This document shows, piece after piece, positions 38,783 through 56,306 of a stretch of 62,546 nt of DNA (its first letter is position 1; the number at the start of each line of letters is the position of its first letter). The position numbers and the translations under genes are program-made. The stretch comes from a virus (Duplodnaviria; Caudoviricetes), in IMG/VR virus record IMGVR_UViG_3300021962_000102, positions 1-62,546 of that record. One strand, 5' to 3'. Under the pieces are notes generated by a model. That model was not told the DNA's origin and did no database searches. It saw nothing but the letters and a program-made list of their open reading frames with translations.

Positions 38783-39532
38783 TTATAAATGGTCTAATAT
38801 TTGGGAATGATCTGTGTTTGCAATTAGTTTATCTATGGCGTCTTTTTTTATTTGGGACACCCTAACGTGAGCTGTTTCTACAAATATTCCTATTTTTTCA
38901 GCTATCTGTTTGGCATTGTGTTTTTCACAATCAAGACCATAGCTTAATCTAAGGACTTCATATTCTCTATCGTTAAGGTTCTTTTTCAAAAGACCCATTA
39001 GATAAGTATTAAGTATGTCTATATTATATGGCTCTGATGAGTCTGGTATGTCGTAGATATAGTTGTCGTCCACATTTGGTTGTTCATCAACAGATAAGAA
39101 TATGCTATTGAAGAACATTGCAACCATTTCTTTGTCTTTTCCACTGTCTTTTCTGATTTGGTTGATTTTGTGTTCGGGTATGCGTATATCACCTCTGTTT
39201 TTGTCGATGGCTCTACGTATTGCACCTTTGATTCTCTTTGATAAGAACGATATGATTGTTTTTTCTTTGTCATCGCTTCTTTCTACTTTTTCCCAATCTA
39301 TTTTATCAACAGCAGTAACCAAACCAATGTTGCCTTCCTGTATTAGGTCTTCTATGTTGAGAACGCCTATTGCTTGCTGTGTAGTAGTAAACTTTCTAGC
39401 AATGCCTTCTACAAGAGGTAAGAACATTGTTATAATGTCATCTCTATGTCTAGAATCTCTATCAACTCTAGATAAAAAGAATTCTACATCTTTTTTGTAT
39501 TTAACGTAATTCGTTATGTTGTACTTTTTCAT
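38783..39532 (-). CDS. phage sigma70-family factor (probably late)
   Basis: LVEGIARKF, DLIQEGNIGL, IRIP, region 4 LNDREYEVLRLSYGL..RVSQIKK. Confidence 0.88.
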   Translation of the reverse strand: MKKYNITNYVKYKKDVEFFLSRVDRDSRHRDDIITMFLPLVEGIARKFTTTQQAIGVLNIEDLIQEGNIGLVTAVDKIDWEKVERSDDKEKTIISFLSKRIKGAIRRAIDKNRGDIRIPEHKINQIRKDSGKDKEMVAMFFNSIFLSVDEQPNVDDNYIYDIPDSSEPYNIDILNTYLMGLLKKNLNDREYEVLRLSYGLDCEKHNAKQIAEKIGIFVETAHVRVSQIKKDAIDKLIANTDHSQILDHL

Positions 39533-40154
39533 AATCCAAGTTCAGTAATTGTTTCTCTTTTTTGAGATCATCACTGATGTTTCTATGAATAGTACGAACA
39601 GAACACTTTAACACCTCTGATAATTTTGAAAATGTAATTTTCTCATTATTATCATGTACGTAAAGCATAGCATCATATATATCGTCTTCGTTTATTTTTT
39701 TACTCTTACCGATAATACTTCCAACTATACTTAGTTTTTCAGTGATAGATAACCCACAGCCTTCCTTGAATATAATCTTTCTGGATTTATTCTTAGGAGA
39801 GAGTTCGAAGTCATATTTGATTAAGTCTTGGATTATATTATGTTTTACTTCTTCACTCGCTGTAAAAGTAATAAAACCATTTAACTTATTTGATAAAAAT
39901 TCTAATATTTCTATTATCTCACTGAATTTTCTACTTGGATTCAAATAAAGTATAACAAGCATGTGCCATTTTAATGACTTATACGATGTTATCCTAGCCT
40001 TGCTTCTAAATAGATCGTAGCATTCATTGGTGCCGTTTTCGTAATAATAGCCCCAAACAAATTCTTGTGTGTAGGTATCGTTAATAGGATTCCTCCTATA
40101 GACGATGCGTCTATTATTAAGGAATTCTAAATTTCGATCTGGGAATTGTGACAT
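39501..40154 (-). CDS. C-terminal HTH DNA-binding protein (possible origin-binding protein)
   Basis: ITFSKLSEVLKCSVRTIHRN HTH. Confidence 0.65.
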   Translation of the reverse strand: MSQFPDRNLEFLNNRRIVYRRNPINDTYTQEFVWGYYYENGTNECYDLFRSKARITSYKSLKWHMLVILYLNPSRKFSEIIEILEFLSNKLNGFITFTASEEVKHNIIQDLIKYDFELSPKNKSRKIIFKEGCGLSITEKLSIVGSIIGKSKKINEDDIYDAMLYVHDNNEKITFSKLSEVLKCSVRTIHRNISDDLKKEKQLLNLDYEKVQHNELR

Positions 40155-40194
40155 TTGCCCCCTACTATATTTTATCTATAACCCTAATGTCACA
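40147..40194. promoter_or_regulatory. 48-bp TGTGACA-N34-TGTCACA element overlapping the HTH gene start codon
   Basis: Same length and end repeats as the copies at 50532 and 50635. Confidence 0.7.
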
Positions 40195-40236: not shown

Positions 40237-40244
40237 CAAATTTA
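40237..40244 (-). promoter_or_regulatory. -7 box TAAATTTG upstream of the HTH gene
   Basis: Exact TAnnTTTG; TTTG 16 nt upstream. Confidence 0.5.
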
Positions 40245-40754: not shown

Positions 40755-41366
40755 TCAATGTTTTAATAGTCCAACTTTTATATTGTTATTGAACCATCTG
40801 GTTGCATATAAATCGTGTTCTGATGCGTTAATATATTCGTCGCGTTTCATCGCGTCTAATGACGAAAAAATAACGGCATGCCTGTCTTTTGTTACATCTA
40901 TATATTCTTTTTGTTTACCACTAGTGCTGAATATTATATCAAAGTTTTCTGGTATTAATTCAGAATTTTGTTTTATAAGCTTAACACTATTTGTGTAACT
41001 GTAGAACCGGATGTTTGGAAATTTATTTGCTATGTCTATCCATTTCTTTAAATAATTAAAAGAATAAAAATCACCAGAGTCATGTACTCTAACGTAAGAA
41101 GGATTTTCATAGGTTATATGTGACGACATGACTTCAACAAAATCATCTTTAAGAGTAGCACTGTATCTTTCTTCGTATGCTTTAGAAGGATTTTTGTATT
41201 TATAAGTTCCTTTCCTAGCATAACAGAACTTGACGCAGTCGCCAGCAAATGGACATGTTACTTTGCCAGTTACAGACTTAAACGCTGGTATACCAAAATT
41301 TAATATGCGCACACCAAAATGTTTTGACGTACGCAGCATTTTAGAATTCTGTGATAATAATTTCAT
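40755..41366 (-). CDS. GP88-like (radical-SAM-like) protein
   Basis: TCPFAGDCVKFCYA, RVHDSGDF, FYSYT. Confidence 0.7.
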   Translation of the reverse strand: MKLLSQNSKMLRTSKHFGVRILNFGIPAFKSVTGKVTCPFAGDCVKFCYARKGTYKYKNPSKAYEERYSATLKDDFVEVMSSHITYENPSYVRVHDSGDFYSFNYLKKWIDIANKFPNIRFYSYTNSVKLIKQNSELIPENFDIIFSTSGKQKEYIDVTKDRHAVIFSSLDAMKRDEYINASEHDLYATRWFNNNIKVGLLKH

Positions 41367-41371
41367 AATTG

Positions 41372-41403
41372 TATTATCAACGAAGTGTTGTTGTTTTGTT
41401 GTG
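41372..41403 (-). promoter_or_regulatory. phage early promoter motif
   Basis: CACA-N8-ACA-N10-GATAATA. Confidence 0.7.
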
Positions 41404-41406
41404 TGG

Positions 41407-41637
41407 TTATGTGTTTTTCTCAAACACAAACAATATGTTTTCCCAAGCTTTTATTTCAAACTCTAATCTAGCTATAGCGGTTTCTTTATACTTGTTTTTG
41501 TTTATCAATGGATTATAACTAGAGATCGTATCTGATAAAACAATTTTGTGATCAGATATATTTTTCATTATTAACTCTCTAGAAACAGAATCAATATATT
41601 GTTTAGAATATTCTATCGTTTCTATATCTAGTTTCAT
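41407..41637 (-). CDS. hypothetical protein
   Basis: Co-oriented ORF, ATG 41637. Confidence 0.5.
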   Translation of the reverse strand: MKLDIETIEYSKQYIDSVSRELIMKNISDHKIVLSDTISSYNPLINKNKYKETAIARLEFEIKAWENILFVFEKNT

Positions 41638-41766
41638 TGTGTTTCTACTATTAAACTTAAAGCTTTTATATAACCATTCCAATACGCTGTTTCTTCAGTA
41701 AGACCCCTATATTTACAAACATTGCGGTTGTACTTAGCTTTTCTGTATTGCTCAATTATTATTTTC

Positions 41767-42075
41767 TCATTTTTCATCGTTAAGACTATTTATATAATCT
41801 TCATAACGTAGGCACTCGGCACACACCCATTCATCTTTAGTTGGACTGTTTTGTAAAATCTTTCTGTACACCTCATTTGGTGAGCCGCACCTATCGCATC
41901 TAATACTGTTCTCTAATCCGTATGGATTCCAATCAGCATTATCCTTGAAGTCGCTTGACACCTCTACGTACCATAGACCGAAGTCAAAGATGATAGACCA
42001 AGCTACGTTTGGGTATCGTAACCACGTTACACCAATAGCAAACTGGTCAACGTATTTTCCTTTGCTAATTTTCAT
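41767..42075 (-). CDS. hypothetical protein with CxxC..CxxC Zn ribbon
   Basis: CDRC...CAEC. Confidence 0.55.
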   Translation of the reverse strand: MKISKGKYVDQFAIGVTWLRYPNVAWSIIFDFGLWYVEVSSDFKDNADWNPYGLENSIRCDRCGSPNEVYRKILQNSPTKDEWVCAECLRYEDYINSLNDEK

Positions 42076-42268
42076 TGTCAGATTTTGTTTGGTTATTCGG
42101 ATTTTCTCCGAGTTGAGGTTCATTTTTTGACAACTCTACGATAAAGTCAGCGACCTTCTCGCACTGCTGCTTGTTTAGGAAGTAAAGGCTGTTAGAATGG
42201 AACGTATGACGAATCTTATCGTACACCAACTTCTTTATCAGCGCCCACTTTTCTTCTTCTGTTCTCAT
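42065..42268 (-). CDS. hypothetical protein
   Basis: ATGA-coupled chain. Confidence 0.55.
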   Translation of the reverse strand: MRTEEEKWALIKKLVYDKIRHTFHSNSLYFLNKQQCEKVADFIVELSKNEPQLGENPNNQTKSDNEN

Positions 42269-42501
42269 TTGTACTTGCGTATTACTTCAAAGGTTCTCTT
42301 AATGTCAGAATCAAGATGTGGTTTTTGTTCTGCTCTCACAGGATACCAAGCAATAGTATAACCGTGGTTTGCATTCCAGTCTTCTTTCTTCACTCTGTTC
42401 CCGTTGACGCTGTGCAGATATATCCAAGGGATGTTACCCATCAGCTCAAGCTTAATGCCGATACGCTTCATACGATTGATGAAGATGTCAACCTCGTTCA
42501 T
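42265..42501 (-). CDS. hypothetical protein
   Basis: ATGA-coupled chain; GNIPWIYL motif. Confidence 0.65.
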   Translation of the reverse strand: MNEVDIFINRMKRIGIKLELMGNIPWIYLHSVNGNRVKKEDWNANHGYTIAWYPVRAEQKPHLDSDIKRTFEVIRKYK

Positions 42502-42707
42502 TTCTCGTTGGTTTTGTATTCTTTATCAAAAGAATCTGCAATCTGACGGGTGGTCAAATCTCCGTACTTGAAAGCGAAGTCAACCATCTGCTCCTTCTCC
42601 ATTTCTTTGGCTTTAATTAGAATATCATTTGCGTCTGTAAATTCTGATTTTCCATAAAGAAATTTTGATAACTCAATGTGTTGCCACTCTACTGCTGTCT
42701 GTTTCAT
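42498..42707 (-). CDS. MKQTAVEW-type small phage protein
   Basis: KQTAVEW...KAKEMEKEQ. Confidence 0.65.
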   Translation of the reverse strand: MKQTAVEWQHIELSKFLYGKSEFTDANDILIKAKEMEKEQMVDFAFKYGDLTTRQIADSFDKEYKTNEK

Positions 42708-42868
42708 TTCTCGTTTGTTTTAAAGGTTTCATTTAATAGTTCTGCTAAATCTTGGGCATCTTCTCCGATAGACCCAATTATCTTTCCGTCTACAAGCACG
42801 TTGTATCCGTATTCATCACAACATCCGTCTCCGCAGGTGTGCCAGTATGGTTGAAGTTCTATTTTCAT
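42704..42868 (-). CDS. 54-aa protein with CGDGCC motif (not in the ORF track)
   Basis: MKIELQPYWHTCGDGCCDEYG...FKTNEK*, ATGA overlaps at both ends. Confidence 0.65.
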   Translation of the reverse strand: MKIELQPYWHTCGDGCCDEYGYNVLVDGKIIGSIGEDAQDLAELLNETFKTNEK

Positions 42869-43155
42869 TTCTGCTTAGCGTCAAAGTCTGAATACTTCAG
42901 CCCCCACATTACATTGAACCAGCGCATCTCCTTCTCTGCATAGACTGCTCGCATCTTGAGTTCCTTCATAAGGTACTGCTTACCCCACTCCTTCAGTTCC
43001 TCTCCCTGCTCAAAGGTCATAGTGTACTTCTGAAACCACTTGTCTACGCCACGGATGTCGTCGTAGGTTACGTCGTGTCCAGCAATATCAAACATCTTAT
43101 TGATGATGTCAACGATTGCCTTCTCTTTCTTTTGTTCTCTTGTTAGTCGTTTCAT
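42865..43155 (-). CDS. hypothetical protein
   Basis: ATGA-coupled chain. Confidence 0.65.
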   Translation of the reverse strand: MKRLTREQKKEKAIVDIINKMFDIAGHDVTYDDIRGVDKWFQKYTMTFEQGEELKEWGKQYLMKELKMRAVYAEKEMRWFNVMWGLKYSDFDAKQK

Positions 43156-43304
43156 TCTTCAGTGTTGAAATAGTTAGACGTGCTACACTCCTCACACAAC
43201 CGCTTGCCCTGCATCACAAGACCGAGCTTTGGTGTATGTGTAGTCACCTTCTGGCAGTGTAAGCAGAACTGCTTACCTCGTTTGTGGATTGCGTCTTGTT
43301 TCAT
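43152..43304 (-). CDS. 50-aa Zn-ribbon protein (not in the ORF track)
   Basis: FCLHC...LCEEC; ATGA overlap. Confidence 0.6.
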   Translation of the reverse strand: MKQDAIHKRGKQFCLHCQKVTTHTPKLGLVMQGKRLCEECSTSNYFNTEE

Positions 43305-43349
43305 AATGTGTGTTTAAATGCACAAAGTGTGTAGGTTTTGTGTGATTTA

Positions 43350-43607
43350 TTACACATTATCCTCAATTAGAATCTCCCAATAGTCGTCGTGTTCAACGAA
43401 CCCATTAACAATTCCTTGTAGTAAATACAGCGACATATTAGTGCCCAAGGATATAAATGGTCCGCCGCTTGGGTCAACAAATATAATCTTGTCGTCATCA
43501 TTCCACCCGTAGCGCGTGTACTTGAAGTCTCCCTTCCAGTCGATGTTGCCGTTCTCGTTCTTTTCAAACGTGAACTCGTCTTTATATCTGTTAGTGTACT
43601 TAATCAT
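43350..43607 (-). CDS. hypothetical protein
   Basis: FVDPSGGPFI motif. Confidence 0.65.
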   Translation of the reverse strand: MIKYTNRYKDEFTFEKNENGNIDWKGDFKYTRYGWNDDDKIIFVDPSGGPFISLGTNMSLYLLQGIVNGFVEHDDYWEILIEDNV

Positions 43608-43966
43608 TGGAATGTTTGAATTTTAGCATATACTTCTTTTAGTTCAGACCAAGTACCTAAGTACGTAATTGCTCTAACTTTTCTGTTGTCAATCCATACG
43701 TATTCTTGTCCGTCTTTGATGCGTGGTTTATCCATCACTAATCCATGATACTTGAATCCGTGGTCACTCAACCATTTTTCTGTAACGGCACGGTCTTTTG
43801 ATTCTCTTGCTGTGAAAAAAGTTATAACATTACCATCTTCATACCACTTGTTTATGATTTTTAAAGCGTTGTCATAAACTTTAGCGTATGGGAACAAATG
43901 ACTTTCTTCATTTTTAATGTCATCGCATATTGTTCCGTCAATATCAATTAAGAATACTTTATTCAT
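43604..43966 (-). CDS. HAD-superfamily phosphatase
   Basis: FLIDIDGT, FTAR, MDKP, WIDN; ATG 43966. Confidence 0.8.
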   Translation of the reverse strand: MNKVFLIDIDGTICDDIKNEESHLFPYAKVYDNALKIINKWYEDGNVITFFTARESKDRAVTEKWLSDHGFKYHGLVMDKPRIKDGQEYVWIDNRKVRAITYLGTWSELKEVYAKIQTFQ

Positions 43967-43978
43967 TTTGTTTTTACT

Positions 43979-44055
43979 TGGCACCCCTGACAGGAATCGA
44001 ACCTGTAACCTACGCATTAGAAGTGCGTTGCTCTATCCAGTTGAGCTACAGGGGC
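43979..44055 (-). tRNA. tRNA-Arg(UCU)
   Basis: Canonical cloverleaf, loop CT-TCT-AA, GTTCGA T loop, encoded CCA. Confidence 0.95.
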
Positions 44056-44060
44056 ATAAT

Positions 44061-44139
44061 AGTACGCTCGGTGGGACTCGAACCCACGTGTGACCAGTTA
44101 CCCTTTCTACAAGGTATAAGCTTGAGGGGATACGAGCGT
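44061..44139 (-). tRNA. non-canonical tRNA-like RNA, anticodon UAU (Ile), no D arm
   Basis: 7-bp acceptor ACGCTCG/CGAGCGT, T arm GTGGG-TTCGAGT-CCCAC, loop CT-TAT-AC, discriminator A. Confidence 0.7.
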
Positions 44140-44146
44140 TTATGCT

Positions 44147-44356
44147 TTAAAACTCAGGATGTATATCGCTATCATTTAGCGAATCGTAGTGTTCTCCGTT
44201 GTTTCCATTGCGTAGTATGATCATCATACGTTGCTCTGCTTCTTTTTCTTCTTCGTCAATCTCAATTTGTTGGAATTGCGCGTGTACTGCGCAGGCATTG
44301 ACTATGTATTTCTGGTCGTCTCCAGGGTCGTCGTCAAGTATCACATTATTGTTCAT
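44147..44356 (-). CDS. hypothetical acidic protein
   Basis: RMMIILRNGNNGEHY motif. Confidence 0.55.
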   Translation of the reverse strand: MNNNVILDDDPGDDQKYIVNACAVHAQFQQIEIDEEEKEAEQRMMIILRNGNNGEHYDSLNDSDIHPEF

Positions 44357-44553
44357 TGTTCCCAATATATGAATTTGTAACCATCAGTATTATTAGATGC
44401 TTTGTTTTTCGATCTATCAATCATTGATTTACGTTCTAGCCATCTAGAATACATTTTAGCAACTACTGCATCTCTTTGTCTTTTAAATGGATAGTATTTT
44501 CTAACCTTAGCATTAGCTATTCTTAAAAAGTCATTCATCTGCTTGTCGTCCAT
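44353..44553 (-). CDS. hypothetical protein
   Basis: Coupled ORF. Confidence 0.55.
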   Translation of the reverse strand: MDDKQMNDFLRIANAKVRKYYPFKRQRDAVVAKMYSRWLERKSMIDRSKNKASNNTDGYKFIYWEQ

Positions 44554-44818
44554 CTCCTTCTTCTTGTTTAGTGTTGTAAAGCATACTGCAAAATAAAATA
44601 TATGTAGCTATTTTATTATAAATATACTCAGACGGTAGACCATCGTCTTTGTCTGACTTTATAACATTTATAGCAAATTTAGCTGCTAGTTTTTCAACAA
44701 ACACGCTAGCAGCCTCTGCTCCGAATTGTTTATGTACTTCATAAACGCTCTTGCCTATATCTAGAGGGTTTATTTCACTTATGTTAAAGTCTTCCTGATC
44801 CATTGTAATACTGCTCAA
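44531..44818 (-). CDS. hypothetical protein (start may be 44803)
   Basis: Co-oriented ORF. Confidence 0.5.
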   Translation of the reverse strand: MSSITMDQEDFNISEINPLDIGKSVYEVHKQFGAEAASVFVEKLAAKFAINVIKSDKDDGLPSEYIYNKIATYILFCSMLYNTKQEEGDGRQADE

Positions 44819-44941
44819 CTATGTTTATTGCCCTGTCCATAGCTTGTAAGTTGGCAGTGTGCACGTTTTTGTTTTTGAGCATCCATTCAACGAATTTAGC
44901 GCTTTTAGAAATACTTTCTGCAAGTTTATCTTGTTTCATAA

Positions 44942-45211
44942 TTAATGTTGTTGCCAAATCATCATTGTTCCTGGATCATACCACTCGAAATACCAACCGT
45001 TTTTTTCAACAAGTTCGTTGATTTTTGGATGTACGCCAAATGTGTTGTTCCAAGTATCACTATAGTAATCGAAGAACTGTGGAGTGTAATCTGCAGCTAA
45101 CCAAATGCCTTGATTTTCTACTTTGTGACCATAAAAATCAGATGCGGTACCACACACTTTAAGACCTTTTTCCGAAAGCAGGTCCATTAATTTACTAATA
45201 TCAGTAGCCAT
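44942..45211 (-). CDS. hypothetical protein
   Basis: GWYFEWYDPGT motif. Confidence 0.65.
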   Translation of the reverse strand: MATDISKLMDLLSEKGLKVCGTASDFYGHKVENQGIWLAADYTPQFFDYYSDTWNNTFGVHPKINELVEKNGWYFEWYDPGTMMIWQQH

Positions 45212-45464
45212 TTTCGTCTAAATAAGCTTGAATTAATTCTTCTAACTTGTTAAAAAACACAATGTTAGAACCGTTTTTATCCACGATTAACGCCTTTGAA
45301 CCTATAGATAGGCTAATTGCATTTACATAAGCATCCCAGCCTGCTTGAGCGCCAGTGCCAGATTCGTAGTCTAATTCTGCTGGAGAATATTCTGCAGATC
45401 CGAACACATCAACTTCAATGTGATCGTTAAAAGGCATTAGCCCAGTTAATTCTATTTTTGACAT
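45201..45464 (-). CDS. hypothetical acidic protein
   Basis: Directly downstream of an early promoter. Confidence 0.6.
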   Translation of the reverse strand: MSKIELTGLMPFNDHIEVDVFGSAEYSPAELDYESGTGAQAGWDAYVNAISLSIGSKALIVDKNGSNIVFFNKLEELIQAYLDENGY

Positions 45465-45481
45465 TTAGCTGTTGTTTTATG

Positions 45482-45513
45482 TATTATCAAACGGTGATCG
45501 TTACTTGGTTGTG
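45482..45513 (-). promoter_or_regulatory. phage early promoter motif
   Basis: CACA-N8-ACG-N10-GATAATA. Confidence 0.75.
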
Positions 45514-45893
45514 AGGTAAATGTTTTTATTGATCTTACGGTTGTGTGAAATGCTCCACTTGTGTTCATTTGCAGTCACGTAGTCAAGTATGTATAGCAAA
45601 CGATCCTTACGGCTGAGAATCTTTACAACCTTACCATCTATACGCGGGTTGATTGGATAGTATTGGTTTGAGAAGTTTTTACCAATGTTGCGTTGGCGTA
45701 TTACGTTTCCAGCAAGTGTTTCACTGATTGTGAATCCATATCGCGTTTGCCAATATGTACTACCGTTGTTAAGGTTTTTCTTCGGAGCAACAGGTGTTAA
45801 GCCAGCGTCAATAAGCTTTTTCCAAGCGTTGCCTTCTGATTTGATTTCGTCATAGACAATAGTGAGTTCGTAGGGTTTATTTGTCTTTTTCAT
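45501..45893 (-). CDS. hypothetical protein
   Basis: 130-aa co-oriented ORF. Confidence 0.6.
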   Translation of the reverse strand: MKKTNKPYELTIVYDEIKSEGNAWKKLIDAGLTPVAPKKNLNNGSTYWQTRYGFTISETLAGNVIRQRNIGKNFSNQYYPINPRIDGKVVKILSRKDRLLYILDYVTANEHKWSISHNRKINKNIYLTTK

Positions 45894-45983
45894 TTTTTTC
45901 TGATTTTTTATCTAGGTATTTTGACAATAAGAATACTGATACTAAAAACAATAGGAATATTGAAAACGGTATAATCTTGTTTA

Positions 45984-46844
45984 CTACAGTAAGATACTTG
46001 AGCATTTTTTATTTCTTTTTAATCTATTTAATCCGCTGTCTTTTAGTTGACGCGCTTTTTCATCTGGAATATCTAATTCCATAGCTATTTGCTTAATAGT
46101 CTTGGCATGTTCAAACGCGCCTAAATACATTGACACAACCTTGAAGTGCATTGGATTTAAAACCTTCTCTGCAGTTTTCCAAAACAGATTTACTGTAGAC
46201 TCCTGTGTTATATCTTCATCTGGTTGTGCGTAGGTTGTGTTAGGCAACACATCAGATATTGTAGTTGATGATTCATCTCCAGACAGCGTAGCGTCGCTAG
46301 ACGTCATCTCTGCGGTGTGGTTGAACATGTCTAAAACAAAACTCTCTTCAACGCCAAGATGTTCTGCAATCTCAAAAGGTTCTGGTTCTCTAAACAGTTT
46401 CTGCTCGAGCTCAGACGATGCCTTGCGTATCCTATTCATATTGGCATTCCTATTGCCTGGCGTGTATATCTGCTTTGACTTAGTGTCAATTGAGTGTAGT
46501 ATACTCTGCCTGATCCACCACACGGCGAACGATATGAACTTAAAACCTCTTGTTGGATCGAACCTGTCAACAGCCTTAATAAGGCCGATGTTGCCTTCTG
46601 ATATTAAGTCTTCAAGCTTCATACCAGATACTTGATACTGCTTGGCGACAGATACAACAAACCTTAAGTTTGCGCGCGTTAGTTTTTCTTTTGCAACTGG
46701 ATCCCCTGTTTCGTAAATGATTTTAGTTAATTCAAATTCTTCTTCTGGCGTTAATAGTTTTTCTTTAGAAAGCTCTAAAAAGTATTTATCTATTGATTTG
46801 CTTTCGCGTTTAGTAATCTGATTGGCGATCTTAAGTTGGCGCAT
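45984..46844 (-). CDS. RpoD/SigA-like sigma factor of the Bacteroidota primary-sigma type
   Basis: MRQLKI..ITKRE, ANLRFVVSVAKQYQ, DLISEGNIGL, FDPTRGFKFISFAVWWIRQSI. Confidence 0.92.
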   Translation of the reverse strand: MRQLKIANQITKRESKSIDKYFLELSKEKLLTPEEEFELTKIIYETGDPVAKEKLTRANLRFVVSVAKQYQVSGMKLEDLISEGNIGLIKAVDRFDPTRGFKFISFAVWWIRQSILHSIDTKSKQIYTPGNRNANMNRIRKASSELEQKLFREPEPFEIAEHLGVEESFVLDMFNHTAEMTSSDATLSGDESSTTISDVLPNTTYAQPDEDITQESTVNLFWKTAEKVLNPMHFKVVSMYLGAFEHAKTIKQIAMELDIPDEKARQLKDSGLNRLKRNKKCSSILL

Positions 46845-47059
46845 TAATCTAAAAGTTCTGGATAAAATTCTCGGATAGTCATCTTATCCATTTCATAATA
46901 TGGCGATGACAAGAAATCAAACAACTGTTGCTTTGTGCCCGTTAACAAGGCTATGCCGTAGTTGGTTTTACAGGCGATATTAAACTTGGCACATAAAGAA
47001 ACAAACTCTTGCTCTGGACCAACGTAGTCTAGATCAATAGTTAAAAGTTCTTCTTGCAT
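46844..47059 (-). CDS. hypothetical protein
   Basis: Coupled ORF. Confidence 0.55.
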   Translation of the reverse strand: MQEELLTIDLDYVGPEQEFVSLCAKFNIACKTNYGIALLTGTKQQLFDFLSSPYYEMDKMTIREFYPELLD

Positions 47060-47391
47060 TAGTAAACGTTTTTAATAAGTATTCTTTGGTGCGAACTACC
47101 GTCCCATTCGACTTCATAGCCTGCGGTTTCAAACGTACGGCGGATTTCTTCACCGTCACCAGCCCACGCGATGTATAGGTTGTTTGTATCTCTAAGATGA
47201 GACTTGTCTTGTGCGTGGTAGAAAACAACCTTTTGCTCTTTGCCTTCTGGCACGGCACTCCATCCGCACCCCTGGCAGCACATGAAGTTTTGCCTAGCGA
47301 AGTACCCTAGTTTACGCAGTTCTTTAAACACTGCGGTTAATTGGCTATTGTCAACACTATAGCGATTGCTGTATCTCGTCGAGCGCCTCAT
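47059..47391 (-). CDS. DUF6891-like protein
   Basis: ARQNFMCCQGCG, VFYHAQD, LYIAW. Confidence 0.6.
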   Translation of the reverse strand: MRRSTRYSNRYSVDNSQLTAVFKELRKLGYFARQNFMCCQGCGWSAVPEGKEQKVVFYHAQDKSHLRDTNNLYIAWAGDGEEIRRTFETAGYEVEWDGSSHQRILIKNVY

Positions 47392-47581
47392 AGTTGATGT
47401 CTCCGTTTTGGTTAATGATGTTGTTTTCAATAAGTGCACTAGCGGCGCGGCCGTAAAAGCCTTGTAGTTGCCAAGCCATACCCGTGCGGATAAGGGTTGA
47501 GAACATATTTATAGTGCTAATGTCATCTAGTTCGCCGTTTTCAAAGGCGATAATGTTGTCTAAAGAGAAGTTGTCTTGCAT
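47357..47581 (-). CDS. DUF7417-like protein
   Basis: LIRTGMAWQLQGFYGRAA..LI. Confidence 0.65.
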   Translation of the reverse strand: MQDNFSLDNIIAFENGELDDISTINMFSTLIRTGMAWQLQGFYGRAASALIENNIINQNGDINYEALDEIQQSL

Positions 47582-47638
47582 TGTGGTCGTTGTTGATGTA
47601 ACCAAGAGGCGCTACAGACGTAACGCCCCGTGGTACAT

Positions 47639-47671
47639 TATTATCAACTACTTTGACGTAACGCCATCGTG
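47639..47671 (-). promoter_or_regulatory. phage early promoter motif
   Basis: CACG-N8-ACG-N11-GATAATA. Confidence 0.7.
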
Positions 47672-47675
47672 AAGA

Positions 47676-48329
47676 TTAAGAGATAATGCTGAAGTACGTA
47701 CCGTGACCTGGGCGCTCAACAATATGTTCTTCGCCTTCGATTACAAACTTAACTCGCTTGCAGTCTGCAAAGCCGATCTCACGTCGCTCCATTGCTGTTG
47801 ATGAAGCGTGACCATTTCTGATGTAAATCTTTTGATCTGTTTCGTGTGTATTTGTGTCAACTGTAAAGCTATCACCAAAGTTGTGCCATTCTTTTTCTGG
47901 TTGCTTGTAACCACCTTCTTCAAGAACAGAGATTACAACTGGTCGTTGATCATCTGTAGCAGCCAATATCATTTTTTCTGCAAACTTCTTGGTGATATGA
48001 ACTTCTTTTGTGAACGGACTGTTGTTCTCTGCGATTTGTGAACTGATCTTTTCTTTCCAGTCAGAGCAAGCTACATCGTAGATTTTACCAATGCTTTCAC
48101 GCTTTAGCTTAATCATACTTGAGTCATCTGCTAGCTCTAACCAACGGGCGTTGCACCACATATTGTCGTCTTCGGCGAAGCTTACTCGCGCGGTTTCGTC
48201 GCTTGGGTCTACGATGATTACTTCGCCAGTTTTGCCAAGGTATTCGCTACTAATGACACCAACGCCTGGACCTTCTGTAAGGTTAACTACTTTTACTTGT
48301 TGTCCTTCTTTGATTTCGTGGATTTTCAT
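47676..48329 (-). CDS. hypothetical protein with an N-terminal SH3/KOW-like region
   Basis: IKEGQQVKV...GKTGEVI; YIRNG..EIGF shared with 48621..49526. Confidence 0.6.
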   Translation of the reverse strand: MKIHEIKEGQQVKVVNLTEGPGVGVISSEYLGKTGEVIIVDPSDETARVSFAEDDNMWCNARWLELADDSSMIKLKRESIGKIYDVACSDWKEKISSQIAENNSPFTKEVHITKKFAEKMILAATDDQRPVVISVLEEGGYKQPEKEWHNFGDSFTVDTNTHETDQKIYIRNGHASSTAMERREIGFADCKRVKFVIEGEEHIVERPGHGTYFSIIS

Positions 48330-48387
48330 AAAAAAATAAAATTAAGGTTAAGTGAAAATTAAAGGTTATAACTAGTGTGTATAGCAA

Positions 48388-48594
48388 CTACTGCTGCGGG
48401 AAAAACTTATCTGTATTGCGTTTGACATATTCTAGCCCAGCGATGAAGCCGACGTCAAAGATGCGCATCATCTCTTCTTGAGAACCAGCGAGTTCAGTGA
48501 ACTCAAGGAACTGTTTGTCATCGGAGAATGATACGTAGATGCTGGCCATCTCATTCATTAGCCATTGCTGCATTAGTTGTTCTTGCTCAGTCAT
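48388..48594 (-). CDS. hypothetical protein
   Basis: Downstream of an early promoter. Confidence 0.6.
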   Translation of the reverse strand: MTEQEQLMQQWLMNEMASIYVSFSDDKQFLEFTELAGSQEEMMRIFDVGFIAGLEYVKRNTDKFFPQQ

Positions 48595-48615
48595 AGTGCT
48601 GTTGTTTTACATAGA

Positions 48616-48647
48616 TATTATCAATGCGCTTGCGTCGCGCGATCGTG
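48616..48647 (-). promoter_or_regulatory. phage early promoter motif
   Basis: CACG-N8-ACG-N10-GATAATA. Confidence 0.75.
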
Positions 48648-49526
48648 AGGACGAAGGCGGAAGTAGTTATCCGCTGTTCCACGGTTAACTACGTCAAACA
48701 CGACCTCGCCAGTATTGACGTTCTCAATACAAATGCGGAAATAGCCTGAAAAACCAATCTCAAAGCATCTATACTCTGGACTACTAGATAAACCATTTCG
48801 GATGTATAGATTGTTGCCGCTGTGCATTTCTAAGTCTATATTGTAGAAACGCTTTTTAACCAATCGCTTATGGTACTTGTTATCCGTGATTGTATCCAAG
48901 AATTTACTGACTACGCTGTACTTGCCCCAATGGTGCATTAGTATTTCGTAGAAAACCCAGTCTTTAGGATCTGGGAAAACGTTAAAAACATCGTAACTAA
49001 ACAGTCTACCTAAAAAGTCTTTCTTGATGTCTAGTTTATCTTCAAGCGGGATCATAGACATGTCAATAGCTTCAAAGAAATCACCTAAATGCTCTTGCAA
49101 ATCTTTAGGGTTCTTAATCACGCTCTTACCACTAAGTGGCCTGATGAAGATGCGGTACTCATCTCGCTTACCAGACGTGGTGAACGCAGCGCCATCGGTT
49201 TGGTACACCATAGTGAAGAAGTCTAAATCATACTTGTTAGACACAAGCAAACCACCGTTCACCTCTGTGAGTGCATCGTTGCCGTAAAGCTTAAATTCTT
49301 TGCCGAAGTGATAGCAACCACCGTTGAGTAGTTTTTTGAACTCAACTTCTTTGTCGCCAGCGTAGTTTTCGATTAAGAAGTCAACCTCTTCCTCGCTCAA
49401 GTGAACCACATCCATAAACACATTAGAACCAGCCATATCTTCAAACTCTCGGCGAGCCTTGCCTGGCAAATCAAAGTAGAACGGCTTTAACTCATCCAGT
49501 TCTACGTAAGTTATTTTTTCTTTCAT
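48621..49526 (-). CDS. hypothetical protein
   Basis: 301-aa ORF. Confidence 0.65.
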   Translation of the reverse strand: MKEKITYVELDELKPFYFDLPGKARREFEDMAGSNVFMDVVHLSEEEVDFLIENYAGDKEVEFKKLLNGGCYHFGKEFKLYGNDALTEVNGGLLVSNKYDLDFFTMVYQTDGAAFTTSGKRDEYRIFIRPLSGKSVIKNPKDLQEHLGDFFEAIDMSMIPLEDKLDIKKDFLGRLFSYDVFNVFPDPKDWVFYEILMHHWGKYSVVSKFLDTITDNKYHKRLVKKRFYNIDLEMHSGNNLYIRNGLSSSPEYRCFEIGFSGYFRICIENVNTGEVVFDVVNRGTADNYFRLRPHDRATQAH

Positions 49527-49637
49527 AGGTTTTTAAGTTAAATGTTAGGGCGACTGCCTAGGGCTAACTACAAGTGCAACCTTTAATCCATCGGTGAAGC
49601 CAAATGCACCAGTAGAAAATACCCTAAGCAATCTGGT

Positions 49638-49895
49638 CTAACCCTTGGCTCCACCAATTTTCTTAATACTACCGATCATAGCCCATCCGATGATAAATCC
49701 AGACATAGACGAGATAACGGCGTTATAATCTTCAACCATACCCTTGTTATCAGGGTCAATGTCAAGCTTGATACCGAACTCGTCATTAAGCATTTCTAAA
49801 AGCATTTCAAACGCAATAGAACTCTGTGCTTCGACCTCGGTGGTCATAGACTCTAAGTGCTTCTCAAAGTCTTCGTAGATAAATGAATCTTGCAT
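49638..49895 (-). CDS. hypothetical acidic protein
   Basis: Co-oriented ORF. Confidence 0.55.
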   Translation of the reverse strand: MQDSFIYEDFEKHLESMTTEVEAQSSIAFEMLLEMLNDEFGIKLDIDPDNKGMVEDYNAVISSMSGFIIGWAMIGSIKKIGGAKG

Positions 49896-49900
49896 ACTAA

Positions 49901-50137
49901 TTATTTTTTAGGCATTGTCTTATACCAAACATTCTTGTAAACCATATTGAACGCCAGTGAACCGATGTAGCCATCTAAACCTTGGCGCTTGTACTCATTG
50001 TACATAGCTTCGTGCATACCCGTTATAGTTGTAGCGTTGAAAACGCCTGACGGGTTTAAATCATCAAAAGTCTCAAGCAACACACCGACTAAAGCGGAGC
50101 GTAAGCTATCAATACTAGGTTCGTGGGTTTGTAGCAT
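49901..50137 (-). CDS. hypothetical protein
   Basis: Downstream of an early promoter. Confidence 0.55.
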   Translation of the reverse strand: MLQTHEPSIDSLRSALVGVLLETFDDLNPSGVFNATTITGMHEAMYNEYKRQGLDGYIGSLAFNMVYKNVWYKTMPKK

Positions 50138-50161
50138 AACTAAGTTGTGTTTTTACATAGA

Positions 50162-50193
50162 TATTATCGTCTGTCTTGCGTCATAAGATTGTA
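50162..50193 (-). promoter_or_regulatory. phage early promoter motif
   Basis: TACA-N8-ACG-N10-GATAATA. Confidence 0.7.
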
Positions 50194-50219
50194 TAGTTGA
50201 CAACTACACCATTTTATGG

Positions 50220-50426
50220 TTAAAGCTCGTTAGATTCAACTACAGCCGTGCTAAACGATGCGGCAAGGATAACTAGGCCAAGCACAACCCGCACGTTCTC
50301 ATCAATAGCATAGTAATCCATTGACCCAGTAAACAATACATAGAAAAAGTAAATAACAAACCAAAATAAAACCGATGACACAATAAGAACACCAATAAAC
50401 CGAACGAGTGAAGTGATAACTTCCAT
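50220..50426 (-). CDS. small two-TM membrane protein
   Basis: Two hydrophobic stretches. Confidence 0.55.
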   Translation of the reverse strand: MEVITSLVRFIGVLIVSSVLFWFVIYFFYVLFTGSMDYYAIDENVRVVLGLVILAASFSTAVVESNEL

Positions 50427-50505
50427 AATCAAGGTGGATAAAGAGTTAAAGTGAAAAAAACTAAGAGGAGGTTCAAAACCCTATCTCACACTAAGTGAAT
50501 AGGAA

Positions 50506-50687
50506 ATGTCACCAAACTAAGCTGAAAAAACTGTGACATTTGCCTTATAAGTAGTATATAGTAACGGGCTATTGTCACACTTTTGGCGGAGTTTAAGGTT
50601 ACTGGTAATGTCACCAGGTGAACCTCAAAAAAACTGTGACATTAGCCTTATAAGTAATAGATAGTAACAGGCTATTGTCACACTTTT
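50506..50687. repeat. ~103-bp tandem repeat with two 48-bp TGTGACA..TGTCACA elements and two extra TGTCAC half-sites (candidate origin)
   Basis: Elements at 50532-50579 and 50635-50682; ATGTCACC at 50506 and 50608. Confidence 0.85.
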
Positions 50688-50690
50688 AGT

Positions 50691-50891
50691 TTACTCTGCT
50701 ATGAAGGTCAAACCTTGGCAGGTAAAGAAGTCGCTCTCACTTGTCTTGAAGGTTTTAGGTAGCTCGTTGAGCCTGTGACCTTCGTAAGTTTTTCCTTTGT
50801 ACTGTAACTTGATACGGCGACTGTCGCCTGAATAAAAGAATTTTAGGAACATACCTGAGGATTTAAGGTTTAGGGTGATCGCACTGATCAT
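50691..50891 (-). CDS. hypothetical protein
   Basis: Downstream of an early promoter. Confidence 0.55.
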   Translation of the reverse strand: MISAITLNLKSSGMFLKFFYSGDSRRIKLQYKGKTYEGHRLNELPKTFKTSESDFFTCQGLTFIAE

Positions 50892-50894
50892 TTG

Positions 50895-50933
50895 TATTAT
50901 CAGACGCGGTGTGTATTAGGATTGTGTATAGCA
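50895..50933 (-). promoter_or_regulatory. phage early promoter motif with TGCTATA extension
   Basis: TGCTATACACA-N8-ACA-N10-GATAATA. Confidence 0.8.
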
Positions 50934-50945
50934 AAAAATAAAAGG

Positions 50946-50969
50946 AAAAAAGGCACCCGAAGGTGCCCT
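50946..50969 (-). terminator. intrinsic terminator (UUCG loop)
   Basis: GGCACC-TTCG-GGTGCC-TTTTTT. Confidence 0.85.
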
Positions 50970-50975
50970 TAATCC

Positions 50976-51209
50976 TTACTTCAATGCTTCTCGCACGAAT
51001 TTAGGTAGGTTGTTACTATTAGTGTAATTCCCGTATTTATTAAAGCAAGGCATTGCTTCAAACTTAGCTTTAAACAGCTCGAACACTTTATCGTGGTCGT
51101 AGGTCATTTCTTCACCTTTAGTATTCTTAAAAGTGATAGTTAAACCTTTGCCGAGCATATTCTTGGCAATTACAAAGCGATTCTTGGTGACTGAGGTTGA
51201 GGTAGACAT
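50976..51209 (-). CDS. early protein, paralogue 3
   Basis: KNRFVIAK..TYDHDKV..MPCFNKYGNYTNSNNLPKF. Confidence 0.8.
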   Translation of the reverse strand: MSTSTSVTKNRFVIAKNMLGKGLTITFKNTKGEEMTYDHDKVFELFKAKFEAMPCFNKYGNYTNSNNLPKFVREALK

Positions 51210-51247
51210 AGGAATGAGGTTTTAGACTGAGCGTCGATGCTCATCGT

Positions 51248-51286
51248 TATTATCCAATAGAGACTGTTTTAGGATTGTGTATAGCA
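51248..51286 (-). promoter_or_regulatory. phage early promoter motif with TGCTATA extension
   Basis: TGCTATACACA-N8-ACA-N10-GATAATA. Confidence 0.8.
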
Positions 51287-51296
51287 AATTAAAAAG

Positions 51297-51322
51297 AAAA
51301 AAAGAGGAGCTTTCGCTCCCCT
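51297..51322 (-). terminator. intrinsic terminator (GAAA loop)
   Basis: GGAGC-GAAA-GCTCC followed by a T tract. Confidence 0.8.
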
Positions 51323-51325
51323 TAG

Positions 51326-51550
51326 TCACTTCAAAGCCTCTCTGATAAACTTTGGTAAGTTATTACTATTCGTATAGTTTCCATACTTATTGAAGCAAGG
51401 CATCTCATCGAACTTACTCTTGAACATCTCGTATACCTTGTCGTGCTCGTAGGTTACTTCCTCACCTTTGGCATTCTTGAATACAATAGTCAGTTCCTTA
51501 CCAATCATATTCTTGGCGATCACGAAACGGTTCTTGGTTACTTGTGGCAT
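51326..51550 (-). CDS. early protein, paralogue 2
   Basis: Closely similar to 50976..51209. Confidence 0.8.
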   Translation of the reverse strand: MPQVTKNRFVIAKNMIGKELTIVFKNAKGEEVTYEHDKVYEMFKSKFDEMPCFNKYGNYTNSNNLPKFIREALK

Positions 51551-51590
51551 AATAAGTGGTGTTAGACGTAAGCTTTAGTGCTTACATAGG

Positions 51591-51629
51591 GATTATCCAT
51601 AGGAGCTCGTTAGAATCTTGTGTATAGCA
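51591..51629 (-). promoter_or_regulatory. phage early promoter motif with TGCTATA extension
   Basis: TGCTATACACA-N8-ACG-N10-GATAATC. Confidence 0.8.
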
Positions 51630-51639
51630 TACATAAAAG

Positions 51640-51661
51640 AAAAAAAGGGACCGAAGTCCCT
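51640..51661 (-). terminator. intrinsic terminator (UUCG loop)
   Basis: AGGGAC-TTCG-GTCCCT-TTTTTT. Confidence 0.85.
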
Positions 51662-51665
51662 CGTC

Positions 51666-51920
51666 TTACAGCATACTCGCCATATCTCTTACGAACTTAG
51701 GCAAGTTGTTACTGTTGGTGTAGTTACCGTACTTAGCGAAGCATGGCATCACTTCAAAGCGAGACTTGTTTGCCTCATACACCTTATCGTGATCGTATGT
51801 ACACTCTTCGCCTTTGTGGTTAGTGAATGAGATGATGATTCCTTTACCTAGCATGCTCTTCGCGATAACGAAACGCTTCTTGGCTACTGGTGCTGGGGTG
51901 GGGGTGGCTGTCTTAGACAT
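51666..51920 (-). CDS. early protein, paralogue 1
   Basis: Start at MSKT (51920), downstream of the promoter. Confidence 0.8.
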   Translation of the reverse strand: MSKTATPTPAPVAKKRFVIAKSMLGKGIIISFTNHKGEECTYDHDKVYEANKSRFEVMPCFAKYGNYTNSNNLPKFVRDMASML

Positions 51921-51947
51921 GATTAGAGGATTTAAGTTAGACATAGG

Positions 51948-51986
51948 TATTATCCATGGCAACTCGTAAGGATCTCGTGTATAGCA
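51948..51986 (-). promoter_or_regulatory. phage early promoter motif with TGCTATA extension (outermost)
   Basis: TGCTATACACG-N8-ACG-N10-GATAATA. Confidence 0.8.
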
Positions 51987-52168
51987 TAAACAAACAATAC
52001 CCTAAACATATTCAGAAACAATACACCAGCAGTCGCATCAACACTCAGTCAGTGGCGTAAAAGGCCTAAACCATATAGGTAAACGGTAAATAGGGCCCAG
52101 GCCCGGGTTTACAGATTGACTTTCCTAAACAGGGGCTTCCTCTCCCCGGAGGGGGCCAACACCCAACT

Positions 52169-52217
52169 TCTATACATCTAACAAAAAAAATACACCTCAC
52201 CTCTATACATCTAACAA
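52169..52217 (+). repeat. 16-bp direct repeat TCTATACATCTAACAA x2
   Basis: 52169-52184 and 52202-52217 in the non-coding divergence region. Confidence 0.75.
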
Positions 52218-54734: not shown

Positions 54735-56306
54735 ATGGAATACAATAATCCAAGTGAACTCATTAAAGAGTTGACATTCAGCGCCAGGGCTAGAAACAGA
54801 ATGAAACAAGGCGTTGACAAACTAGCAGCCGCAGTTTCATCAACGTTGGGGGCCAGCGGAAAGTGCGTTATATATGAAGACGCTATGGGTAGACCCATTA
54901 TCACTAAGGATGGTGTTACTGTAGCTGAGTCAGTTGTACTTAAAGACCCGCTAGAAAACATCGGCGCAACGCTTATCAAGGAAGCCGCAAAAAATACTGT
55001 TAAAGAAGCTGGTGACGGAACAACCACCGCTACGGTGCTTTCACACGCTATCCTTACGCACGCATACGAGATTATAGAAAACGAAAACCTTCGTGAACTA
55101 AAGAAAGGTATCGAACAAGCGACAAACGACGTGATTGACTTACTGGAGTCAGCCAAGGTGGAGGTATCTGGAGACATGCTTTACTCTGTCGCCAACATAT
55201 CCACGAATAATGATTCAGAGCTGGCAAAAGTGATTTCAGAAGCATTCACAGCCGTTGGTAACAGCGGCGTTGTCCTAATGGAGGAGTCTGAAACAGACCT
55301 AACGCACGTTGAGATAGTAGACGGCGTACAGTTTGACTCTCCACTCAAGTCGCAGCACTTTATTACAGACGCGGACAAAGAAAAAGCCGTTCTGGAAAAC
55401 CCATATGTACTTATCATGGACTCTAAAATTCCTAATATTAGGAGAATACAAGGAGTTCTAGAATTTGTAATCAAGCAAAATAGATCGTTGCTTATTATCG
55501 CAGACATCGAACAGCAGCCACTCGGTGCACTGTTGATGAACAAGGTACGCGGTAATATCAAGGTCAATGTTGTGGATCAGCCCGGCTTTGGACCAACGCG
55601 GCGTGATACGCTTGAAGACCTAGCTGCAATAACCGGTGCTAAACTCATTTCTGATGAACTGGGTGACGATATCGATTCAATATCTGTTGATGCGCTGGGA
55701 GAGGCCGTAAAAGCCGTTACGGATGGAAAAAACACCGTTATCACTGTTGAAGAGACGAGTGAACTGGTTAGCGAGCGCTTAGCGATTGCTGAGGTAAAAC
55801 TTAAAAGCGAGCAAAATCCGTTTTTCAAAAAGAAGATCGAACAGCGCGTAGCAATGCTTAGCGGTAAGGTTGGTATTGTAAGAGTTGGTGCTAACTCTAA
55901 AATAGAGTTGAAAGAAAAGAAAGATCGTGTTGAAGACGCTATCTACGCTGTTAAGGCCGCTATTCAAGAAGGAATTATCCCAGGCGGTGGTATCGCACTA
56001 CTTAACGCATCGGCAAAACTAAATAAAACTGGAAACTCCAATGGCTACAATGTAGTGCTTAACGCAATTATGGAGCCTTGGATCAAAATAATGACAAATG
56101 CCGACCTAAATCCAGAAGATAGGAAGTACAAAAAGATGAAGCCAGGTCAAGGCGTTGATGTAGTGACTGGAGAAATTGTTGATATGGTTGAGGCTGGTAT
56201 CATTGACCCGCTACTAGTTACTAAGACAGCGCTGAAAAACGCGTCGTCAGTTGCCGCAACTATTATATCGGCAGACGCTGTTATCTCTAACGTTAGAATC
56301 GATTAA
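54735..56306 (+). CDS. groEL: chaperonin GroEL
   Basis: ITKDGVTVA, AGDGTTTATVL, PGFG, RVEDA, PGGG, GIIDP; no GGM tail. Confidence 0.95.
   Translation: MEYNNPSELIKELTFSARARNRMKQGVDKLAAAVSSTLGASGKCVIYEDAMGRPIITKDGVTVAESVVLKDPLENIGATLIKEAAKNTVKEAGDGTTTATVLSHAILTHAYEIIENENLRELKKGIEQATNDVIDLLESAKVEVSGDMLYSVANISTNNDSELAKVISEAFTAVGNSGVVLMEESETDLTHVEIVDGVQFDSPLKSQHFITDADKEKAVLENPYVLIMDSKIPNIRRIQGVLEFVIKQNRSLLIIADIEQQPLGALLMNKVRGNIKVNVVDQPGFGPTRRDTLEDLAAITGAKLISDELGDDIDSISVDALGEAVKAVTDGKNTVITVEETSELVSERLAIAEVKLKSEQNPFFKKKIEQRVAMLSGKVGIVRVGANSKIELKEKKDRVEDAIYAVKAAIQEGIIPGGGIALLNASAKLNKTGNSNGYNVVLNAIMEPWIKIMTNADLNPEDRKYKKMKPGQGVDVVTGEIVDMVEAGIIDPLLVTKTALKNASSVAATIISADAVISNVRID

Follow-up and report, generated by a model that had tools for sequence, protein, structure and literature searches.

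The IMG/VR virus record IMGVR_UViG_3300021962_000102 (62,546 bases, completeness estimate 99%), which we analysed in its entirety and call the window, contains nine copies of a rigidly spaced tripartite motif, all on the minus strand and each ahead of a gene. The motif recurs across a clade of uncultured, crAss-related podophages, where it co-occurs with a gene for a free-standing sigma factor of 249 amino acids. From sequence, we infer that the motif is a promoter, where on it transcription starts and which factor reads it. The nine sites would be copies of a phage-specific promoter that drives the leftward early and early-middle genes, with its specificity conferred by a phage-specified sigma-70-family factor. 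Because the phage has no recognisable RNA polymerase, the host core polymerase must serve. We tentatively propose that the 249-amino-acid sigma directs this polymerase to the motif, a pairing to which we give somewhat less than an even chance.

A sequence-only reading of this DNA had proposed nine sites, and we found all nine in place, every one on the minus strand. A strict scan for the proposed consensus, CACR-N8-ACR-N10-GATAAT, returned seven matches on the minus strand of the window and none on the plus strand, and a tolerant pattern (TACA and N11 allowed) returned nine and none. With at most one mismatch there were eight matches; 100 dinucleotide shuffles averaged 0.27, and none of them reached eight. 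The reversed pattern, used as a control, had no forward and no reverse match in the window. A weight matrix built from eight sites found no further window copy above 12 bits, the top background score across 20 shuffles being 14.1. The block layout of the proposed consensus held up, but its first block is wider than had been described (five nucleotides) and a fourth element, ATG, had been missed. The window consensus is YACRA-N7-ACR-N10/11-GATAAT(A), with CACRA as the first block in eight of nine sites and TACAA in one. GATAAT, the putative −10 hexamer (A at −11, T at −7), is present in all nine, and ATG follows it by four nucleotides in six of nine, where it is usually not the start codon. The hexamer ends 4–58 nucleotides before the next ATG, which bears out the claim that the sites lie just upstream of gene starts; sites 48616 and 45482 overlap the 3′ end of the upstream gene. 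Between 41 and 52 kb there are about 14 gaps between genes, nine of which hold the motif, and no copy was found in the replication block or on the plus strand.

The copy nearest the divergent region (51942–51979; site 51948) reads CACGA-N7-ACG-N10-GATAATA-cct-ATG and heads the first of three tandem paralogous small genes, whose start lies more likely at 51920, 28 nucleotides away, by homology to the other two paralogue copies. Copies 2 (51585–51622; site 51591, a GATAATC variant) and 3 (51242–51279; site 51248) head the second and third paralogues, and copy 4 (50889–50926; site 50895) heads a 66-amino-acid open reading frame (ORF; 50691–50891). These four sites share an upstream extension, GCTATACAC, and form tandem cassettes of a promoter, a small gene and a terminator; they are therefore duplicates and not independent. 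The three paralogues are genes of the minus strand (51666–51920, 51326–51550 and 50976–51209; overall span 50976–51920). Each is followed by an intrinsic-terminator-like hairpin (51645–51662, 51302–51323 and 50949–50970, minus strand), and these hairpins lie ahead of three promoter copies. Among the four cassette promoters the inter-block spacers have diverged while the blocks are unchanged, which reads as the footprint of constraint. Further leftward, copy 5 (50156–50193, the TACAA variant) heads ORFs 49901–50137 and 49638–49895, copy 6 (48610–48647) overlaps the end of a 301-amino-acid gene and heads ORF 48388–48594, and copy 7 (47633–47671, with the N11 spacer) heads an operon of DUF7417, DUF6891, a 71-amino-acid ORF and a 286-amino-acid sigma. 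Copy 8 (45476–45513) leads into a series of small ORFs running down from 45464. Copy 9 (41366–41403) heads a GP88-family gene, and its predicted +1 is the A of that gene's ATG (41366), a start that, if correct, would make a leaderless mRNA.

The motif is a clade-wide element. A scan of IMG/VR with CACRA-N7-ACR-N10-GATAAT-N4-ATG returned at least 119 contigs, and in the fetched loci (1.09 Mb, covering the 119 matches listed, to which the fractions of 119 given here refer) a relaxed motif occurs 411 times. Two or more copies are present in 89/119 loci, both strands are used in only 2/119, and homologues of the small paralogues occur in 81/119. Five complete relatives (65.8–68.1 kb) have forward/reverse counts of 8/0, 0/9, 6/0, 4/0 and 0/10, with none for the reversed-pattern control, and in a few relatives the divergent region holds copies placed back to back. 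Compared with that of the window, the family consensus is richer: tttYACAAAcTAAATACGA-N9-GATAATAtaaAT(A/G)tA, followed by an A-rich tract. Circularity was avoided by picking sites by the middle block alone, which gave 185 unique TAAATACGA sites. GATAAT lies exactly nine nucleotides downstream in 168 of these 185, ACAA occupies a fixed upstream position in about 90%, and each position of the hexamer region, which played no part in the choice, is 94–96% conserved. At the seventh base past the hexamer, 52% of the 185 sites have A and 45% have G (a purine in 97%), with T just before it in 65%. Three near-complete relatives without the exact pattern keep TAC[GAT]A-N9-(T)GATAATAtAtATG, their upstream block being replaced by GGTTGAC, a C-rich run or TTCGAA. 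Since these exact-pattern misses retain the middle block and the hexamer, the invariant core extends from about −27 to +1, and the far block differs from lineage to lineage. The motif marks early transcription units across hundreds of uncultured genomes. As a separate observation, locus L009 (MW202828.1, 44.5–50 kb), the nearest GenBank relative by terminase, contains neither the motif nor a free sigma homologue; a 16-bp perfect palindrome, GTGTCGTTAACGACAC, lies there 17–45 nucleotides upstream of at least seven early gene starts.

The window codes for a large terminase, a portal, a capsid-type protein and a protein with a crAss muzzle C-terminal domain. Large-terminase matches in GenBank phages bear Flavobacteriia host names in 86 of 89 records (Flavobacterium 68, Cellulophaga 15, Tenacibaculum 2, Maribacter 1); the other three have no host genus in their names, and the top match overall is the uncultured MW202828.1 (62.9%). 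Shine–Dalgarno-like 4-mers precede 2 of 80 window genes and 1–9% of genes in five relatives. Because the terminase relatives infect Flavobacteriia and such 4-mers are scarce, the host of the clade is probably a member of the Bacteroidota. Megablast of the region against GenBank phages gave no match, and those phages include no cultured representative of the clade, which occurs at marine, estuary and freshwater sites. The minus-strand block, from about 52 kb down to 29.8 kb, contains small ORFs and two sigma genes together with ERF and PDDEXK recombination genes, a primase-helicase and a ribonucleotide reductase. A 2293-amino-acid ORF (22518–29399, plus strand) lies after the structural genes, the muzzle-domain protein included.

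In the anatomy that we predict, the upstream block, which varies by lineage (YACAA in most genomes), would span about −37 to −33, the conserved TAC(G/R)A would span −26 to −22 and the near-invariant GATAATA −12 to −6, and transcription would start at a pyrimidine–purine step seven nucleotides past the hexamer and run into an A-rich leader. This geometry appears to fit a sigma-70-type promoter, with GATAAT as −10, a purine seven nucleotides downstream and an upstream block 20 nucleotides away. No −35 element is present 16–18 nucleotides upstream of the hexamer; the blocks sit at 9–10 (ACR/TACGA) and 20 nucleotides (YACRA), and the latter distance fits only the longer Bacteroidota spacing. Alternatively, the motif might be no promoter at all but the repeated operator of a DNA-binding regulator or an element of RNA leaders. 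Its two ACRA-like blocks are one helical turn apart, as tandem binding sites would be, and four or five copies have a separate 9-mer, TGCTATACA, directly beside them. An operator would not be expected, however, to keep to a single strand in nearly every genome examined (the exceptions being the 2/119 loci above) or to stand at a fixed distance from a conserved purine and an A-rich leader, with terminators ahead of some copies, and we found no other promoter candidate for these genes. We regard this explanation as highly improbable.

The Bacteroidota housekeeping consensus is TTG-N19-21-TAnnTTTG, and in most phages the host reads the early promoters. It is conceivable that the host holoenzyme, with its primary or an alternative sigma, reads the motif directly and that no phage factor is needed. 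GATAAT keeps the A at −11 and the T at −7 that all sigma-70-family factors use, with a putative start seven nucleotides downstream, and the 20 nucleotides between block 1 and the hexamer fall within the Bacteroidota range of 19–21. The motif had nevertheless been described as unlike the Bacteroidota consensus, and rightly so: TAnnTTTG at the −10/−7 position or a properly placed upstream TTG is found in 0/9 sites. A scan for E. coli-type promoters also showed no enrichment (36 found against 33.7 expected), and the near-invariance of the hexamer, with seven bases at 94–96%, is more typical of a dedicated factor. Host-type candidates do exist in intergenic parts of the window, at 40244 (minus strand), 38764 (minus strand) and 54700 (plus strand), and host-type elements are rare in the upstream regions of relatives (0–2 per genome). 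Phage phi14:2, which has a Flavobacteriia host, uses the exact host consensus in its host-read promoters: those upstream of g070 (P070, TTGAC-N18-TATATTTG) and g075 (P075, TTGC-N19-TACTTTTG) both match it. Direct reading by the host holoenzyme therefore seems unlikely to us.

The phi14:2 middle promoters are, according to the preprint that describes them, read by the primary-sigma holoenzyme (Drobysheva et al., 10.1101/2020.03.07.982082). Like our sites, they have been called an extended tripartite motif ahead of the genes of a crAss-type phage, and both would use the host core polymerase. Their blocks, however, are the host consensus, whereas here the blocks are YACAA, TACGA and GATAATA, and they head structural genes, whereas our motif heads early-type genes. 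The phi14:2 early transcripts come from a virion polymerase, and the same preprint reports no common motif for them (10.1101/2020.03.07.982082); no motif of that type of polymerase was found here. New here are a consensus that is different from, and much sharper than, that of phi14:2 and stands ahead of early genes, and a promoter belonging to a large uncultured clade without the crAss polymerase signature.

Three sigma-like sequences are present in the window: free-standing proteins of 286 and 249 amino acids and a stretch inside the giant 2293-amino-acid protein. Both free sigma genes had been placed downstream of the motif, and both are: that for the 286-amino-acid protein (45984–46844, minus strand; regions 1.2, 2, 3 and 4) in the operon of site 47639, and that for the 249-amino-acid protein (sigB; 38783–39532, minus strand; regions 2 and 4) 1.8 kb past site 41372. 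Among the relatives examined, the 286-amino-acid sigma was found only in the near-identical contig L088 and is therefore a recent addition. The 249-amino-acid sigma matches Sigma70_r2 with 37.1 bits and Sigma70_r4 with 28.1 bits, both above the cut-offs, and a six-frame search agrees. It is encoded on at least 540 IMG/VR contigs, is the sole free sigma in 5/5 complete relatives and occurs in 16/19 motif-bearing records of at least 90% completeness; in one of the other three, tblastn finds it. Selection for this sigma instead of the motif gave the exact motif in 31/34 near-complete records, and the remaining three carry a variant motif. It is the only sigma gene common to the motif-bearing clade. 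Directly upstream lies a gene for a 217-amino-acid protein (39501–40154, minus strand) with a weak C-terminal helix-turn-helix match. The two reading frames overlap and the two genes are co-conserved. The model of the 217-amino-acid protein is confident (predicted local distance difference test (pLDDT) 90.6) with no clear structural match, and its ATG lies within the right arm of a conserved inverted repeat (40146–40194).

That repeat is a degenerate third copy, covering the start codon of the 217-amino-acid gene (40146–40194, minus strand), of an imperfect inverted repeat of about 46 nucleotides, GTGACAnnGCC...GGCTnATGTCAC. Two tandem copies (50533–50578 and 50636–50681, minus strand) lie, each with a T-run after it, where 264 nucleotides separate two early genes, and their RNA folds have z of −3.6 and −2.1. 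The repeat is kept in 41/119 related loci, and relatives carry it in the divergent region as well. Its possible functions are those of a small RNA, a terminator or a translational operator.

In the explanation that we tentatively favour, the reader of the motif would be the clade-wide 249-amino-acid sigma, possibly together with the co-conserved helix-turn-helix-like 217-amino-acid protein, and the resulting loop would be primed by a small amount of sigma-independent or host-sigma transcription. Several observations weigh against it. The sigma gene sits at the far end of the motif-driven units, and its operon has a motif copy within 170 nucleotides upstream in 0/26 relatives and TAnnTTTG upstream in only 2/26. 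Since the operon is downstream and without a promoter of its own, a naive cell holds nothing to start the loop. The sigma of single-sigma phages (phiEco32, and T4 with gp55) usually acts on genes expressed later. The late genes of the window and its relatives have neither the tripartite motif nor host-type promoters in their scanned upstream regions, and the layout is as expected for an early-made sigma that switches on late genes. The upstream block varies by lineage, yet sigma regions 2.4 and 4.2 are unchanged, and a search for co-variation of region 4.2 with the variants of that block found none. TACGA lies only nine nucleotides from the hexamer, which is not the usual binding place of a region-4 domain. 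Finally, the co-occurrence of motif and sigma may reflect shared ancestry only, many other genes being clade-wide too.

The third sigma-like sequence lies at about residues 1090–1192 of the giant protein (25785–26093, plus strand; gene 22518–29399) and resembles sigma-70 region 2. Sigma70_r2 (PF04542) scores 21.6 bits against the giant protein, below the 24-bit curated cut-off (E of 1.3e-3 on a 400-amino-acid piece), and a profile of the giant protein reaches E of 0.032 to a sigma chain in the PDB. In a model of the domain (pLDDT 74, from a 16-row alignment), residues 11–113 align to sigma region 2 with Z of 5.3–7.5 (values below 8 may arise from a common helical arrangement); root-mean-square deviations are 2.4–5.3 Å over 72–99 residues, and the entries listed are all sigma factors or polymerase–sigma complexes. 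Foldseek gave no match at E ≤ 0.001 for this model or for that of the 217-amino-acid protein, and hhalign of the giant-protein profile against the 286-amino-acid sigma was weak (probability 3, 36 columns). The region-2-like domain is probably real, and it is possible that it is a module that captures host polymerase. The central part of the giant protein had no match in an IMG/VR single-protein search or by tblastn against GenBank phages, and is missing from elemo phage gp21 and from the giant protein of MW202828.1. Apart from this, more than 150 giant proteins of 1,600–3,100 amino acids share this domain, and it is the stretch most conserved among them (GVPLAAYINKYLP); on language-model features only, the C-terminal part of the giant protein resembles the LPD38/LPD39 clusters of polyvalent proteins.

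The sequence-only reading expected the factor to arrive in the virion and proposed to compare the motif with this embedded domain across related phages; the comparison did not support the domain as the cognate factor. The profile of the region matches 9/19 motif-bearing records at least 90% complete. Among 50 motif-bearing records, only 2 of 20 profile matches cover the whole profile including its sigma-2 part (G040 and G037), and Pfam Sigma70_r2 was detected in one giant ORF. The signature PLAAYINKYL is absent from the giant ORFs of 5/5 complete relatives, which have only the C-terminal ~650 amino acids in common with that of the window. A search for the signature as [VI][PG]LAAYIN yielded 202 contigs. 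The predicted co-variation of motif and domain therefore came out in one direction and not in the other: 13 of 14 near-complete records selected for the signature carry the motif, but most records selected for the motif have no such domain. Because the embedded domain is a feature of a subclade inside the motif-bearing clade, it cannot be the general reader.

A broader form of this idea is that the motif marks immediate-early promoters whose reader is a phage factor that enters with the DNA, so that it is on hand from the outset, and that the newly made free sigma then switches transcription to late genes. The candidates are the giant polyvalent-type protein, presumed to be in the virion, through its sigma-2-like domain or another module, and packaged 249-amino-acid sigma. 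Such delivery would account for the gene order, in which promoters precede the small genes that come first from the divergent region and both sigma genes lie downstream, and for a sigma operon that in 26 relatives lacks its own promoter and has the start codon of its first gene inside a conserved hairpin. The sigma-2-like domain (21.6 bits; Z 5.3–7.5 over about 90 residues), the resemblance of the giant C-terminal part to LPD38/LPD39 domains of injected polyvalent proteins (a language-model lead) and the motif in 13/14 near-complete records with the embedded signature point the same way. The domain is missing, however, from most motif-bearing genomes, and no region-4-like domain was identified beside it. 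Virion delivery of the reading factor is possible, but we consider a pre-existing factor, taken as a whole, rather unlikely. More improbable is a specific joint version, in which the region-2 module of the virion protein enters the cell, captures host core polymerase and starts the tripartite promoters before any phage expression in the subclade, while relatives without the domain would rely on packaged free sigma or on a different module of this fast-evolving protein. At the level of titles and the beginnings of abstracts, supplements excluded, we found no published description of the motif or of a virion-borne sigma, and the word 'sigma' is absent from the main text of a survey of polyvalent proteins, supplements excluded (PMC5512222).

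The giant protein could also hide an unrecognised phage RNA polymerase that reads a contiguous promoter from about −27 to +3. The compact core TACGA-N9-GATAATA-N3-ATR runs through the start site like promoters of single-subunit polymerases, and the giant gene has the genome position of the crAss virion polymerase gene. That polymerase itself long went unrecognised. Nevertheless, the 2293-amino-acid ORF has no D[FYLIVM]DxD (DFDxD-type) polymerase motif, Pfam and PHROGs searches with the whole protein gave no family, polymerase families in Pfam included, and the giant proteins of relatives share only their C-terminal ~650 amino acids. We judge a hidden polymerase to be very unlikely.

Promoter classes found only in phages and read through phage sigmas are textbook knowledge. 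SPO1 gp28 and gp33/34, T4 gp55 and phiEco32 gp36 redirect the host core polymerase to a phage-only consensus, and a sigma-70-family protein of the phage together with such a consensus is what our proposed system would have in common with these cascades. In SPO1, T4 and phiEco32, early promoters read by the host supply the sigma, which then acts on later genes, whereas here the motif precedes the earliest-looking genes and a sigma gene, and no host-type promoter class is evident. T4 middle promoters combine a MotA box with a −10 element and depend on sigma appropriation by AsiA and MotA; they resemble our sites in having a −10-type hexamer and a phage-specific upstream box that replaces the −35. 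By this analogy, a small phage DNA-binding protein could read the upstream box. The distances differ from those of T4, with TACGA nine nucleotides from the hexamer and a further block at 20 nucleotides; no MotA or AsiA homologue was identified, and the hexamer differs from the presumed host −10/−7 element. Were the factor delivered by the virion, the logic would be that of the virion RNA polymerases of N4 and crAss phages, in which a factor enters with the DNA and early genes are independent of host sigma. Those phages, however, deliver a polymerase, and no polymerase motif was found here. N4 promoters are DNA hairpins, whereas the tripartite motif is no inverted repeat by eye, no formal repeat test having been made.

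Further elements of the window and its relatives were noted alongside the promoters. The word CTATACA (as TGCTATACA) abuts five early promoters on the minus strand (51978–51984, 51621–51627, 51278–51284, 50925–50931 and 50190–50196) and occurs twice on the plus strand of the divergent region (52170–52176 and 52203–52209). It has 18 matches in the window against 9.5 expected, its reverse complement, TGTATAGCA, recurs beside the first promoters of relatives, and it may be the binding site of a regulator. A G+C-rich stretch, GGCCCCCTCCGGGGAGAGG, at 52130–52160 in the divergent region has similar C-rich runs, TAGCCCCCCTCCCC, at the matching place in relatives and may be an origin or a packaging signal. 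The most enriched 7-mer of upstream regions without the motif (window and G001–G005) is GTAACTA(TAAT), found in 10 regions against 1.03 expected. It lies 17–31 nucleotides before late gene starts, upstream of structural genes, and is also the start region of tripartite promoters in relatives (GATAATATAAATGTAACTA), which makes it a candidate late-promoter or leader element. The window also encodes a tRNA-Arg(TCT) within the early block (43979–44055, minus strand) and a chaperonin of the Cpn60 family (54735–56306, plus strand), the latter preceded by a rare host-type TAAATTTG element.

This clade differs from crAss-type phages that start infection with an injected polymerase and no recognisable promoter: here the signature of that polymerase is missing, and a very sharp putative promoter of 40 bases, unlike that of the host, is present. 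How a phage of Bacteroidota might take over its host without a host-type early promoter is thereby reducible to the promoter, a 249-amino-acid sigma, a 217-amino-acid protein and a giant virion protein. If the proposed pairing of sigma and promoter is true, it would provide an orthogonal expression pair for Bacteroidota.

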